In this document: positions 6,941-60,670 of the stretch, piece by piece | Layout of the letters: each line of letters starts with the position of its first letter | How positions within the stretch are numbered: the first letter of the stretch is position 1 | Origin: Eledone cirrhosa | Lineage: Eukaryota | Direction: 5' to 3' | Assembly (NCBI GenBank): GCA_964016885.1 | Contig: OZ024740.1 | Location: forward strand, 264,678,001 to 264,742,000 | DNA length: 64,000 nt | Translations under genes and position numbers: made by a program | Notes under the pieces: generated by a model | The model's database searches: none | The model's input: only the letters and a program-made list of their open reading frames with translations | Told to the model about the DNA's origin: nothing

Positions 6941-7125
6941 AGTTTTAATATAGATGAGATTCTACAGGACTAGAACTGTTTCATTCATTAGAAATCATCA
7001 GGAATTTCTAATGTAGGAAACAGTTCTAGTCCTGTAGAATCTCATCTATATTAAAACTGTTATACTCTGCTATGTATTGAGTACCTTACTTACTGTGGTT
7101 ACCTCCGATTCAACCCGGAATAACG
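6941..7125. mobile_element. Fold-back PLE-like remnant with hammerhead core at the junction
   Basis: Inverted arms 6941-7003 and 7005-7058; minus arm reads c-CTGATGA-T-TTC-taat-GAA-T-GAAA-CAGTT; same family at 5853-5927 and 26265-26368. Confidence 0.75.
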
Positions 7126-7141
7126 TATATATATTTTATGT

Positions 7142-7797
7142 TCATAAATAGGAGAACGTGCGAGTGAGTTAAAGAAGGGGATTAATTTGGGTGGTGAGAG
7201 TATTGTGTTGAAGTAAATAAAAATAGAATTAGTTAATGACTCCCACTCTTGCGTCTACATAAGTAAATGTACACATTGATATATGTAAACACATGCGTAT
7301 TTGTTAGTGTATGAAGCGGATGGAGCACTGATGGAGAAAATACAGACGGCTATGTAACCAGCTAGTTAGCTGCATAGAGTTATAATGGCATATATATATA
7401 TGTGTGTGTGTGTGTATGCACGTACATATATATATATATATATATATATATATATATATATATATATATATATATATATATATATATATATATATATATA
7501 TATATATATATATATATATATATATATATATATATATATATATATATGCCATTATAACTCTATGCAGCTAACTAGCTAGTTACATAGCCGTCTGTATTTT
7601 CTCCATCAGTACTGCATCCGCTTCATACACTAACAAATACGCATGTGTTTACATATATCAATGTGTACATTTACATATGTAGACGCAAGAGTGGGAGTCA
7701 TTAACTAATTCTATTTTTATTTACTTCAACACAATACTCTCACCACCCAAATTATTCCCCTTCTGTAACTCACTCGCACGTTCTCCTATTTATGAAC
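7142..7797. repeat. ~250 bp inverted repeat arms around a central (TA)n tract
   Basis: 7142-7390 is the near-perfect reverse complement of 7547-7797. Confidence 0.9.
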
Positions 7798-8229
7798 TTA
7801 AACTGGCATTTTTCCGTGGTATTCTTTATTCTTTGTGTATGTAACTATCTATCTAGCACTACATCAATGTATCTATATATCTAGACGTCCATCTCTGTAT
7901 ATATATATATATATGGTGGCTGCCAACTGGTTTTCGAGTACGGCCACTACTTTATACCCATGTAGGAGAACCCCTACCGATGCGCTGAACGAGTGTGACT
8001 TTTTAGTCCAACCAGCGACTTGAAAACTCTGGTACAAACACTACACTTGTGACAATTATTGACACATAATGCTGGGCCCATGGTACCATGTGACGACAAG
8101 TGCACAGAGATCTCCAGATATAAAGCAATGCCTGTGCCGTGAAGCTTTTATAGTAAGCAAAGGCACTGCACCAAGCCAGTCCCACTCTCTTAACGAAGAT
8201 GATATTTACCAAAAAGAAGAACAAGTCAA

Positions 8230-8520
8230 CATCATTGGAAACCATCAGGGTTGCAGGTGTTATATTAGAGTTGTCCTTCTCCTAGAATTCTGCCTTGACA
8301 AAGGCTAAGGGGTCATCTCTCCCGGTGATTTTGGATGGCAATTGAATCTTAAGAGCTCCTTTGCCCTTTGACAGGTTTTGTTTTTAGTCCTGCAGGATGT
8401 CCAAAGTCACCCTCCTCACCAAGAAACCTTGGTTAGGTTGCCAGTTTAGTCGCCAACGACCCGACTATGAGACAGATTGTACTGGGATACATGTTACCAG
8501 TAGCACCAACTGGTGACCTG
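8230..8520 (-). repeat. Dispersed repeat family (second copy 38570-38810, plus strand)
   Basis: Shared segment GGCGACTAA.C.GGCAACC...CTTGGTGAG(G)AGGGTGA.TTTGGACA.CCTGCAGGAC...AAACAAAACCTG. Confidence 0.65.
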
Positions 8521-8728
8521 ACATAATATATATGTATATATAATATATATATATATATATATATATATATATATATATATATATATATATATATATACAT
8601 ACCTAACATATATATATATATATATATATATACATACATTATATATATATATATACATACATACATACATATATATATATATATATATTAAAATATAAGT
8701 ATTAATAAAATAGATGTTCTTTTGATCA

Positions 8729-8791
8729 ATTACATTTTATTATACATATTTCTGATGTACAACAGTACGTCCTCATCAGACAAAATATAAT
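8729..8791 (-). ncRNA. Type I hammerhead ribozyme
   Basis: attatattttgt-CTGATGA-ggacgtac tgtt gtacatca-GAAA-TATGTA-TA-ataaaatgtaat; 12 bp stem I; stem II closing pair G.A. Confidence 0.8.
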
Positions 8792-9377
8792 GATACATGA
8801 CATACCCTGAGATGTTAAATGGTTAAGATTTAATCAAGGAAGTGATTAATCCAGGGGAAAATTTTACTTAAATAGCCTATTCATGAGAAAATGCGAAAAC
8901 ATAATAATTTCATTAGAGAATCTGTGAGTAAGAAAACACGTTGCATACTGTAACTGTTCTAAAAGTTTTAAAGTGTATGATACTACGATATATCTAGGAA
9001 AATGTCTCATCATGAATCATAACAGACAGTGATAGCCACTGGAAAAGGATTTATAAAGAGGGAAACATAAAGGGTGTGTGTGTGGGGGGGGGGGGGGGGG
9101 TGATATATGCAGAAGGAGATTTTTTCCGAAAGTTAAACGGTTAAATTTGAAAATATTTAATTTATAATATTAGAGTGAAGACTCCAGATTTCAGGATTAT
9201 TTGCTGGTTATTTATAGTTACAGTATGCAACGTTTTTTTCTTACTCACACATTCTCTAATGAATTTACGTTTTCGCATTTTCTCATAAATGGGCTATTTA
9301 AGTAAAATTTTCCCTTGGGTTAATCACTACCTTGATTAAATCTTAACCATTTAGCATCTCAGGGTATGTCATGTATC

Positions 9378-9440
9378 ATTATATATTGTCTGATGAGGAC
9401 GTACTGTTGTACATCCGAAATATGTATAATAAAATGTAAT
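9378..9440 (+). ncRNA. Type I hammerhead ribozyme
   Basis: CTGATGA at 9390-9396; stem II gga-c-gtac/gtac-a-tcc; GAAA 9417-9420; self-complementary stem III ATATGTAT; predicted cleavage after 9428. Confidence 0.85.
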
Positions 9441-57850: not shown

Positions 57851-58087
57851 AAAAAAAAACCTCACTTTCTAATATATATATATATATATATATATATATA
57901 TATATATATATATATATATATATATATATATATATATATATATATATATATATATATATATATATATATATATATATATGTATATATATATATATATATA
58001 TATATATATATATATATATATATATATATATATATATATGTATATATATATATATATATATATATATATATATATATATATATATAT

Positions 58088-58266
58088 AAGGAAGGAAAAG
58101 TGGTAAGGAACCAGATGGACCATAACGCACCAAAGTACTCAATACTTAGGGTAGTAGAGTGGGTAATAGGAACAAGTATCACCTCGACGGCAGATCTCAA
58201 GCCGCCTTGTCTGCTAATTCTCGACAGTACAGAATTAGCTGTCGAAACGGCTTGAACTCTGTTCCT
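58088..58266. mobile_element. Fold-back family F copy, diverged
   Basis: Tail GTGGTAAGGAACCAGATGGACCATAACGCACCAAAGTACTCAATAC plus central inverted repeat. Confidence 0.8.
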
Positions 58267-59009
58267 ATATATATATACATATATATATATATATATATAT
58301 ATATATATATATATATATATATATATATATATATATATACATATATATATATATATATATACATATATATATATATATATATATATATATATATATACAT
58401 GTATATATATATATATATGTATATATATATATGTATATATATATATATGTATATATACATATATATGTATATATATATATATATTTACATATATATGTAT
58501 ACATGTATATGTATACATATATATGTATATATATGTATAACTTTGAATAACTTTGAATAACTTTGTATATATATATATACATATATATGTATATATATGT
58601 ATATACATATATATACATATATATGTATATATATATATATATATATATATATATATATATATATATATACATATATATGTATATATATATAAATACATAT
58701 ATATGTATATATATATATATATACATATAAATGTATATATATATATATACATATATATGTATATATAAATATATACATATATATGTATATATATATATAT
58801 ATATATATGTATATATATATATATATATATATACACATATATATATATATATATATATATATATATATATATATATATATATATATATATATATATATAT
58901 ATGTATACATATATATATATATATATATATATATATATATATATATATATATATATATATATATATATATAATTATATATATATATATACATATATATTT
59001 ACATGAAAA

Positions 59010-59500
59010 ATATGAAAACATGGCGTGCTGCGTGCTTGCAAGTGGGTTACATATGAATAAAATTAGTCCTTCTACAGCGATCTTCCAGCCTTCATTGGTA
59101 TTTCATCGCGTTAAAAATGATATACCTCTGGTTGGTACGAGCAACGGCTAAAGAAAGTTGTTCGGACACGTAAAATAGGGTGAAACGAGCTAGACATGTA
59201 AACAAACAAAGATGGTAATGCATCGAAAAGTGTCAAGTCCCTGAAATCGATGAACTTAAGTTCTGTGAAATCGTAGACGAGAGATAAAGACCATCCAACC
59301 TGGGTGAAATGTGAGCGAGAAAAAGATTTCACACAGGTCAAACGGGAGGAAGTGATGGAGAGGGAGTAGCAGAGAGTGAGTGAGTGAATGTGTGAGGAAA
59401 AGGCTAACTGAGATATTGACTGGCAGAGGGGGTAAAAAGAAAGTGAGAGATACAGAGAAAGGGGAAGCAGTAAGAAACAGACGGGTCACAGCGGAAGAAA
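59010..59500 (-). repeat. ~490 bp (TA)n-flanked repeat family copy
   Basis: Colinear with 37125-37625. Confidence 0.85.
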
Positions 59501-59687
59501 ATATATAAATATATATATATATACATATATATATATGTATATATATATATATATATATATATATATATATATATATATATATATATATATATATAGCGGT
59601 AGAATACTGGAAGATAATATCCGTAGTGGTAGAGCACTCAGTCCATGGGACGAGTTAGGTAGAAGTGGTTACACAACAGTTAGTTCA

Positions 59688-59737
59688 CCATACCGAGAAC
59701 AATTGTTTCACCTCAGCGGATCCTCAGCTCGTAATGG
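59688..59737 (-). ncRNA. Type I hammerhead ribozyme in a 145 bp island (59596-59741)
   Basis: ccattacgag-CTGAGGA-T-cc-gctga-gg-T-GAAA-CAATTG-TT-ctcggtatgg; palindromic stem III ACAATTGT. Confidence 0.78.
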
Positions 59738-60316
59738 ACCCTATATATTTATATAGATATAAATATGTATATATATACATATATATAGATAGAGGGAGAG
59801 ACTACCCGTGAGTCGTTGGGTCACGTTCACTTCAAAATATTTTTTTTTAAAATCATTTTCAAATAATTAAAATATACACAGGCATGTATATAATGTGGAA
59901 TGAGACTGGAAGGTCCATATATATACGTCTGTGTATATATATATATAAAAATGTATGAGTGTGTATACATATATATTATATGTATGTGTGTATATATATG
60001 TTGGTATCTGTGATATTTATACACTGGTCATAGACACACACACACACACACATATATATATATATATATATATATATATATATATCCACACACTCCCACA
60101 CATATATACACAACAACACCACCAGCTACAATCTCTTCCATTTTCGTTCTTTCTCTGTCTCCTCTCCCTCTCTCTATGTGTCTCTTTAAATCTACTCTGG
60201 TGCTGTACACACACACACACACACACACACACACACACACACACACACACACACACACACACACACACACACAAACACATGTATATATATATATATATAT
60301 ATATATATATATATAC

Positions 60317-60670
60317 AGAGATATCAACGGTAAGTTGTGGGGTCTAGTCTGCATGAAGAACTCAATGTAATCCATATGTTGAAAATGTTGTAGGTTAAAA
60401 TAAATCCCGGAAAACAATAAAACATTAAAAGGAAAACAGACATGATATAAGTTAAAACAATGAAATAAAAAATCCAGTCATTAGAAATATACTTCACAGC
60501 TGGTGATATACATGTAAGTAAATATTCTGTTTATCTGATATTGTGTAACTAACCTTACATAGATCAATCTCGAAGTAGAGTTACGATGTATTATCATCAT
60601 CTAGAAACGATCGTAAAGCAGTGAAGTATATTTCTAATGATTTGATTTTTTATTTCATTGTTTTAACTTA
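60317..60670. mobile_element. Fold-back remnant with degenerate hammerhead (60527-60621, plus)
   Basis: Arms 60444-60500 and 60618-60672; GAAA-CGATCG-TA palindromic stem III, CTGATAT core. Confidence 0.65.

Follow-up and report, generated by a model that had tools for sequence, protein, structure and literature searches.

The short fold-back elements described here lie in a stretch of 64,000 nucleotides from Eledone cirrhosa (contig OZ024740.1, positions 264,678,001 to 264,742,000; hereafter the window), and the closest described systems are the Penelope-like elements (PLEs). For PLEs, an inverted, 5′-truncated copy with a one-sided tail of 30–40 bp has been reported (PMC8557442, section 6). 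As far as the available text of these papers goes, this inverted-copy-plus-tail pattern and the preference for (TA)n are already published (PMC8557442, sections 6 and 15; PMC3846280), as are short truncated insertions (PMC8557442, sections 6, 7, and 15; PMC3846280; PMC8969392; PMC9977147, with a median insertion of 128 bp). According to the accessible part of PMC4209133, PLEs carry minimal hammerhead motifs, including a U3-A8 variant and opposite-strand pairs 100–700 bp apart. In vitro, a PLE protein was found to nick and extend both target strands, and two starts of reverse transcription, both internal to the RNA, bracket the tail; the part of that paper available to us does not address the inverted copy, and a dimeric protein is a prediction there (PMC11167929). 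The formation of the inverted insertions and the microsatellite preference are named as an open problem in section 15 of PMC8557442.

At 18 coordinates of the window, a first-pass annotation had listed asymmetric fold-backs and interpreted them as products of a new, microsatellite-driven twin-priming route. The fold-backs are real structures, and the architecture is present at all 18 coordinates. They very probably originate from PLEs. The hairpins are probably 5′-truncated, hammerhead-bearing PLE 3′ ends, with at least one family of the Neptune type, formed by two starts of reverse transcription joined head to head. As PLE ends, whose pattern and (TA)n preference are on record in the text seen of PMC8557442 and PMC3846280, they do not represent a new route, whereas the idea of two separately primed cDNAs was retained as the best fit to the arm geometry.

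The DNA of the window is AT-rich and of animal type, and 134 rows of tandem repeats were recorded in it, mostly with dinucleotide units. After masking of simple repeats (14,858 bases), self-BLAST revealed local inverted repeats at most of the listed sites, and arm-by-arm alignment resolved 18/18 into (TA)n, arm, junction, inverted arm, one-sided extension, and (TA)n. A census was made of all 104 non-simple segments between TA runs, in which a segment was scored as positive if its terminal 24 nt recurred inverted within it at a score of at least 26. This was the case for 18 segments, and shuffles (20 per segment) peaked at 25 or less. Fourteen positives are on the earlier list, three are simple-repeat or chance-like, and one is an additional fold-back at 13110–13262, which has a one-sided tail and is inserted in (GA)n/(TC)n, not in (TA)n. 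Four listed sites (26265, 35896, 48009, and 58088; elements are named here by their listed coordinate) fell below the cut-off, having short or diverged arms. Their arms match at 14/14 (26265), 69/75 (35896), and 24/31 positions (58088), and the weakest site, 48009, matches at 81% over the outer 30 nt (E 0.03) and at 82% over the inner 66 nt (E 1e-13).

Arm lengths range from 14 to 267 nt. By our own grouping the 18 listed sites form 11 families, with six copies in family A, and single-armed copies exist in the same families. Twenty-one two-armed insertions occupy 7190 of the 64,000 bases (11%), and all 21 adjoin (TA)n or (GA)n/(TC)n. None of the SINE-like (short interspersed element) and RTE-like copies in the window is folded like the listed elements. 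A search for the family-A pattern in metagenome contigs gave 0 matches. Among 86 related loci compared, 26 have some inverted repeat, but none carries the unit of (TA)n, two arms, and tail, and these loci served only for the hammerhead comparison.

The link to PLEs is most direct for a 5′-truncated coding copy of 2.3 kb on the minus strand (55587–57872), which has (TA)n at both sides and a TA-like word as its 3′ end. Its minus-strand open reading frame (ORF; 56866–57861) codes for the C-terminal half of a reverse transcriptase (RT), behind which lie a CX4CxxC linker and a GIY-YIG nuclease (Pfam PF01541, E 2e-5, in a search that covered 150 of 355 candidate frames). The RT half (YLDD), linker, and nuclease span 56729–57849, continuing past a frame break near 56870–56910 to about position 56729. 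A search for longer proteins gave 148 homologues among 2936 candidates, the best being 75% identical; most have 600–800 amino acids with RT and GIY-YIG Pfam domains, and the named animals among them are bivalve molluscs. For Neptune, a linker about 25 residues ahead of the GIY-YIG cysteine and a CCHH motif are typical; protein P0002 has CX4CxxC, a spacer of 24 residues, a pair of cysteines inside GIY-YIG, and both histidines. Linker and spacing are like those of Neptune and unlike those of Nematis or Naiad in a by-eye comparison with Fig. S2 of PMC8557442. From domain order, linker, and spacing in the predicted protein, the coding copy fits Neptune. Close relatives of the PLE protein are also encoded on six short contigs in bacterial genome bins (L081 to L086), which are most likely host contamination.

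The coding copy shares both of its ends with the fold-back 39677 (39677–39868; 60-nt arms, 66-nt tail on the right), and for this reason the 39677 family is regarded as the 3′ end of a PLE. The 3′ end of the coding copy aligns with 39677 and halts at the TA-like word where the short arm of that element stops too. At its 5′ end (57858–57872, plus strand), the final 15 nt of the 39677-family tail are matched exactly, inverted relative to the coding arm, joined to (TA)n, and without arm overlap; this 15-nt sequence occurs twice in the window (single-position chance 2e-9). There is no full-length PLE copy in the window, and the relatives L002 and L006 have direct repeats with hammerheads. As no further PLE coding remnant was found in the window, the other 10 families were assigned by architecture and RNA motif.

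This motif is the hammerhead. A minimal type I descriptor found 10 sites with a C3-G8 core, compared with 0 in 50 shuffles. Seven of them lie in the 6941, 8687, and 19978 families. Element 6941 (6942–7125) has its short arm on the minus strand with a full hammerhead at 7001–6963, and a 68-nt tail on the right. Element 8687 (8689–9579) consists of arms of 265–267 nt, a 260-nt unassigned spacer, and a 100-nt tail, with hammerheads at 8779–8741 (−) and 9390–9428 (+). Element 19978 (19978–20384) has 149-nt arms (147/149), an 89-nt tail on the left, and hammerheads at 20164–20110 (−) and 20287–20341 (+). Its family also includes a single-armed copy on the minus strand (36302–36558), which comprises the tail and a hammerhead at 36495–36441, and the insertion 50316–50520, with a hammerhead at 50413–50359 (−). 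The other three sites are in single-armed segments between TA runs, at 52612–52661 (+), 59727–59698 (−), and 40044–40016 (−), and to judge from this motif the segments are likely further PLE 3′ ends.

Two variant cores were found inside elements (shuffle means 0.12 and 0.08). The coding copy carries a minimal type I motif with a U3-A8 core and a palindromic stem III (CCGG) at 55663–55692 (−), 76 nt before its 3′ end. The same CCGG stem III is found downstream of the ORF in the relatives L002, L005, L006, and L008, and a TATA-like word lies downstream of the hammerhead in L002, L005, L006, and L081. Element 45276 (45277–45661; 80-nt arms with 79/80 matches, 79-nt spacer, 146-nt tail) has a hammerhead-like G3-C8 motif at 45416–45461 (+). 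The 3′ half of the core occurs on the sense strand in 6/12 arms and on the antisense strand in 0/12 (shuffle mean 0.64); examples are 33968 (33970–34176; 59-nt arms, 86-nt tail) and 60317 (60316–60668; 52-nt arms, 134-nt tail on the left), where it lies in a 115-nt spacer on the strand of the short arm. Counted by family on the sense strand, a full motif is predicted in 5/11, the 3′ half in 3/11, and none in 3/11, and all motifs and half-cores are oriented outward toward (TA)n. Single-strand folding gives loose support only, with z < −2 in one of six cases, where the fold is not the hammerhead. In an Rfam search of the whole window, no hammerhead was among the best 150 of 563 matches, where microsatellite and miRNA models are dominant; several fold-backs score against miRNA models below the threshold.

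A second recurring feature of the 3′ ends is the tail motif YTGAGTRC with 16 matches against about 5 expected, an excess that is not a clean test because the motif was first spotted by eye. Twelve of the 16 are located on the sense strand, 38–80 nt before the 3′ simple repeat, across several otherwise unrelated families (7077, 9512, 10397, 13147, 26320, 42021, 45770, 47179, 51337, 52872, 58142, and 59641); that at 13147 belongs to the additional fold-back 13110.

A one-sided tail, measured from the end of the short arm to the far (TA)n, was found in all 11 families. In the first copy of each it has a length of 68, 100, 81, 89, 86, 41, 66, 146, 34, 60, and 134 nt (median 81), and only two families are near 30–40 nt. 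At the tail-less end of the same copies, 1, 4, 3, 3, 4, 1, 4, 6, 1, 4, and 5 nt match (TA)n. The annotation had claimed that the tail-less arm ends at a TA-like word, and a microhomology of at least 3 nt (3–6 nt) indeed occurs in 8/11 families, against an expectation of 0.85 for positions along these arms (reached in 0 of 200,000 simulations). Exceptions are 44533 (44533–44690, a fold-back of the 33968 family) and 52739 (52738–52925), whose short arms end elsewhere, 21 nt earlier and 18 nt into the tail, respectively, with 0 nt. Further exceptions are 6941, 26265 (26266–26368, 6941 family, 14-nt arms), 35896 (35897–36100, arms of 76–79 nt, 41-nt tail), and the old, diverged 48009 (48010–48235), each with 1 nt. 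Outside this test, inner-end microhomologies of 3 nt (58088) and 4 nt (coding copy) were seen by eye. The TA-like inner word could serve for primer annealing, mark a nuclease cut, or represent the TATA box of a pseudo-long terminal repeat (pLTR).

Both outer ends recur in raw reads. In two runs of restriction site-associated DNA sequencing (RAD-seq; X6 and X7) with an approximately 10,000-fold pile-up on family A, both labelled with the same species as the best-matching record, reads were placed on the copy 47050 (47051–47232). At the inner site 47155, 2647/19,090 reads (X6) and 2170/19,473 reads (X7) switch to (AT)n, and at the tail end 3344 (X6) and 3723 (X7) do so. The expectation of fixed outer ends and variable junctions was thus borne out, the same two ends being found in thousands of reads next to five junctions in six family-A copies. 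RAD molecules terminate at 47102 (6508/7344; probably a restriction site), so that these libraries cannot show the junctions. The opposite-strand joints 47155–47248 and 47158–47207 have no determinable orientation and were left unused. A 522-nt contig of run X3 matches 47219–47700 without a mismatch, and X3 may be the source sample; X1 and X2 contain small shares only, which are no evidence of habitat.

The reach of the arms bears on how the second arm was made. It was compared in 20 two-armed insertions, namely the 18 listed ones, 50316, and 55587 (13110 was left unscored). The tail-less arm extends further upstream in eight (6941, 10268, 19978, 33968, 52739, 60317, 50316, and 55587), the tail arm in five (41911, 44533, 45276, 45717, and 48736), and the two are level in 47050 and 58088; 8687, 26265, 35896, 39677, and 48009 could not be assigned. 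Two of these eight have arms without overlap. One is 50316–50520, consisting of a tail-less arm of about 165 nt (−) and the last 36 nt of the tail (+), and the other is the coding copy, with 2.26 kb and 15 nt of the tail. Two separately primed cDNAs, one per target strand, are likely the simplest account of this geometry.

The strongest competitor, which we nevertheless regard as unlikely, also starts from a PLE, but has a single tail-primed cDNA folding back, or self-priming on antisense RNA, and copying its own arm. The TA-like word would then be a nuclease cut or the annealing site of the second end, and later one-sided deletions would reshape the centre. Self-priming of this kind was proposed from junction palindromes in the text seen of PMC3846280, and resolution of the tail by the nuclease is discussed in section 6 of PMC8557442. 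The 45717 junction corresponds exactly to a snap-back of 3 nt around a 10-nt loop, in 7/15 assignable cases the tail arm is level or the longer one, and the two arms of 19978 resemble one another more closely (98.7%) than they do other copies (86–93%). However, a cDNA that folds on itself keeps the second arm within the first, and therefore the tail arm should not end short of the tail-less arm in the upstream direction, whereas in 8/15 assignable cases the tail-less arm has upstream sequence that is missing from the tail arm. Because their arms do not overlap, 50316 and 55587 do not come from a simple snap-back, and each would need an extra deletion in one arm, of 2.2 kb in the coding copy. 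A shared template was shown only for 19978 and, by a single shared variant apiece, for 41911, 47050, and 52739, and in family A the identity of arms within an insertion is not clearly above that between insertions. In the 19978 family, three arms (of 19978, 36302, and 50316) start within about 2 nt of one upstream point, which may mark the 5′ end of the RNA or a strong RT stop.

The junctions speak to a second alternative, in which a few palindromic master copies are remobilised as units, MITE-like (miniature inverted-repeat transposable element) or by a PLE in trans, with their ends re-set at TA words. We hold this to be improbable. Family A comprises 10268 (10270–10452), 41911 (41912–42074), 45717 (45717–45911, tail on the left), 47050 with a symmetric junction, 52739, and the diverged 58088 (58089–58265, tail on the left), and these six copies have five distinct junctions. 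The junctions are blunt, show 2–3 nt of microhomology, or contain about 2 extra bases. The two-armed copies of the 6941, 33968, 19978, and 39677 families likewise differ in junction and arm lengths, single-armed copies of the same families exist, and the termini are not inverted repeats. What a master palindrome would explain is the identical junction of 45717 and 52739, whose tails are on opposite sides; this junction lies on a 3-nt microhomology and could recur. Trans-mobilisation of units of direct plus inverted pLTRs is described in the accessible text of PMC3846280.

Somewhat less probable still is a host origin of the second arm, in which repair of broken (TA)n cruciforms duplicates the adjacent PLE end without any role for the RT of the element. 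(TA)n is self-complementary, and an inverted duplication of 251 nt (97%), centred on (TG)n/(TA)n, does occur at 7135–7385 and 7552–7802, adjoining the tail of 6941. This case is centred on the microsatellite, however, whereas the listed elements fold inside the element. The same base is repeatedly the inner end, across loci as well as in thousands of reads, and non-overlapping arms require a second template. Least credible of all are fold-back chimeras at microsatellites from assembly or library preparation, as substitutions separate the arms of one element (88–96% identity in four family-A copies without internal deletions; 69/75 at 35896), each of the two ends is specific to its family and turns up again in raw reads from two further runs, inverted pieces occur without a palindrome in two insertions, and the same pattern is on record for PLEs of other genomes, although no read bridges a junction among the matches listed.

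For the origin from two starts of reverse transcription the following course is proposed. First, the GIY-YIG nuclease would nick both strands of (TA)n, as has been reported in vitro for another PLE in the available text of PMC11167929; the microsatellite is likely the target of this nuclease. Each nicked 3′ end would then prime reverse transcription at one of two preferred RNA sites 34–146 nt apart, and these two starts would fix the outer ends and the one-sided tail that are observed. The inner site would be preferred where the RNA has 3–6 nt matching (TA)n, the observed microhomology being used for annealing. The annotation had assumed one terminal and one internal start; an internal start is kept here, whereas the other is probably internal as well and not terminal, judging from the in vitro starts described in the part of PMC11167929 at hand. 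Both cDNAs would halt at variable points and their 3′ ends would be joined, which would produce the observed variety of junctions. Overlapping cDNAs would give a palindrome and non-overlapping cDNAs an inversion without one, and both outcomes are observed; an overlap would require two RNAs or strand displacement.

A wider version of this scheme is possible but tentative. In it, double target-primed reverse transcription would be obligate for Neptune-type PLEs and would start at two programmed sites within the RNA, of which the inner would be selected through annealing of (TA)n to a TATA-like word and the outer placed by YTGAGTRC. If this is true, palindromes, tails, and palindrome-free inversions are outcomes of a single reaction, the long-unexplained inverted pLTR is accounted for, and about a tenth of the window is hairpin-forming DNA made in this way.

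Several observations weigh against the derivation of all families from PLE ends by double priming. The coding ORF is linked to only one of the 11 families, and a six-frame scan of the window with a hidden Markov model built from 120 homologues found PLE protein only at 56729–57849. No hammerhead was found in the families 35896, 48009, and 48736 (48738–48883; 41-nt arms with 40/41 matches, 60-nt tail), and no Rfam hammerhead family matched at the two sites tested, 9330–9480 and 20232–20380. A later one-sided deletion at the hairpin tip could imitate a longer tail-less arm, the arm-reach tally was done by hand, and the call for 60317 is based on the half-core motif alone. The junction common to 45717 and 52739 is explained by a master palindrome as well. 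At the 47050 junction there is no bridging read or contig among the matches listed, and the depth of run X3 is zero at 47101. Finally, unlike the annealing at the inner site proposed here, the Poseidon element in the accessible part of PMC11167929 initiates at a site without homology to the cut DNA.

The window contains further repeats. A fragment of an RT of the LINE type (long interspersed element; Pfam RVT_1, E 1e-10), presumably RTE-like, adjoins (TA)n at 4284–4957 (+), and the sequence at 3996–4154 is repeated at 26007–26164. A partial-tandem-like direct repeat of 275 nt (97%; 5023–5297 and 5580–5854) begins at (TA)n, and a piece of the 6941 family is joined to it at 5852–5926. The segment 38498–38616 (−) is 5S rRNA-like (Rfam, 44.3 bits at a gathering threshold of 38) and may be the head of a 5S-derived SINE. 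A family of SINE-like elements, about 190 nt long, has a dozen or more copies, some in tandem (3586–3744, 16661–17519, 27161–27361, 27922–28474, 29622–29838, 39286–39488, 50556–51050, and 62644–62864). At 50530–51139, an exact tandem duplication of 304 nt was found, which could be an assembly slip. A weak Pfam match to PIF1 helicase (420–674, −; E 0.004, below the cut-off) is possibly a Helitron remnant.

The minimal two-armed insertions are best filed under known PLE biology, and the families or longer tails may already be contained in supplements or consensus libraries. Less familiar from the literature are the longer tails, the TA microhomology at the inner end, the non-overlapping pairs, and the shared tail motif. 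A literature search on the PLE mechanism found no paper proposing twin priming, a weak negative, as subscription papers (among them Evgen'ev & Arkhipova, 2005, and Arkhipova, 2006) were beyond its reach. A genome with thousands of minimal two-armed insertions allows a count-based test of double priming against self-priming, for which the non-overlapping pairs are informative. PLE stumps of this kind are likely mislabelled as MITEs, unknown repeats, or miRNA hairpins.

With MITEs the elements share that they are short, non-coding, present in high copy number, hairpin-forming, and flanked by TA. An assignment to MITEs or other transposons with terminal inverted repeats was rejected, since the inverted repeat does not lie at the terminus on both sides, copies differ in junction and length, and there are also single-armed and coding ones. 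This agrees with the first-pass annotation, which had likewise denied such a class, and retrotransposition is favoured by the variable junctions, the non-terminal inverted repeat, and the coding copy.

In twin priming of L1, both target strands prime on the RNA of the element and the cDNAs are joined, often by microhomology, which results in a 5′ inversion. The priming sites of L1 are the poly(A) tail and an internal position that varies, usually with little overlap, whereas the elements of the window would use two preferred, close sites, and their overlap leads to palindromes.

Among the PLEs, the Poseidon element PAc studied in vitro (Frangieh et al., 2024; PMC11167929) is similar in having two starts around the tail, nicking and extension of both strands, and AT-rich targets. 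Its start, as given in the available text, is not homologous to the cut DNA, whereas the inner site in the window matches (TA)n over 3–6 nt in 8/11 families. The Naiad and Hydra clades, in the sections seen of PMC8557442, share the target preference for (TA)n and also form tailed insertions in tandem and inverted arrangement. In Naiads the nuclease is N-terminal and canonical hammerheads are missing, whereas in the coding copy the nuclease is C-terminal and a hammerhead motif is present, and this copy retains the two cysteines inside GIY-YIG that are reportedly lost in Hydra; the hammerhead-less families 35896, 48009, and 48736 could be Naiad ends. The closest match are the endonuclease-positive (EN+) PLEs of the Neptune type (Arkhipova et al., 2013, PMC3846280; Craig et al., 2021, PMC8557442), for which the available text describes an RT followed by a C-terminal GIY-YIG domain with an upstream CX2-5CxxC linker, strong 5′ truncation, a head-to-head inverted copy with a one-sided tail, a hammerhead near the 3′ end, and insertion into microsatellites. 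Compared with their stated tail of 30–40 bp, the elements of the window, mostly 100–400 nt long, have tails of 34–146 nt, and they differ further in the TA microhomology at the tail-less end and in the arms that in some insertions do not overlap.

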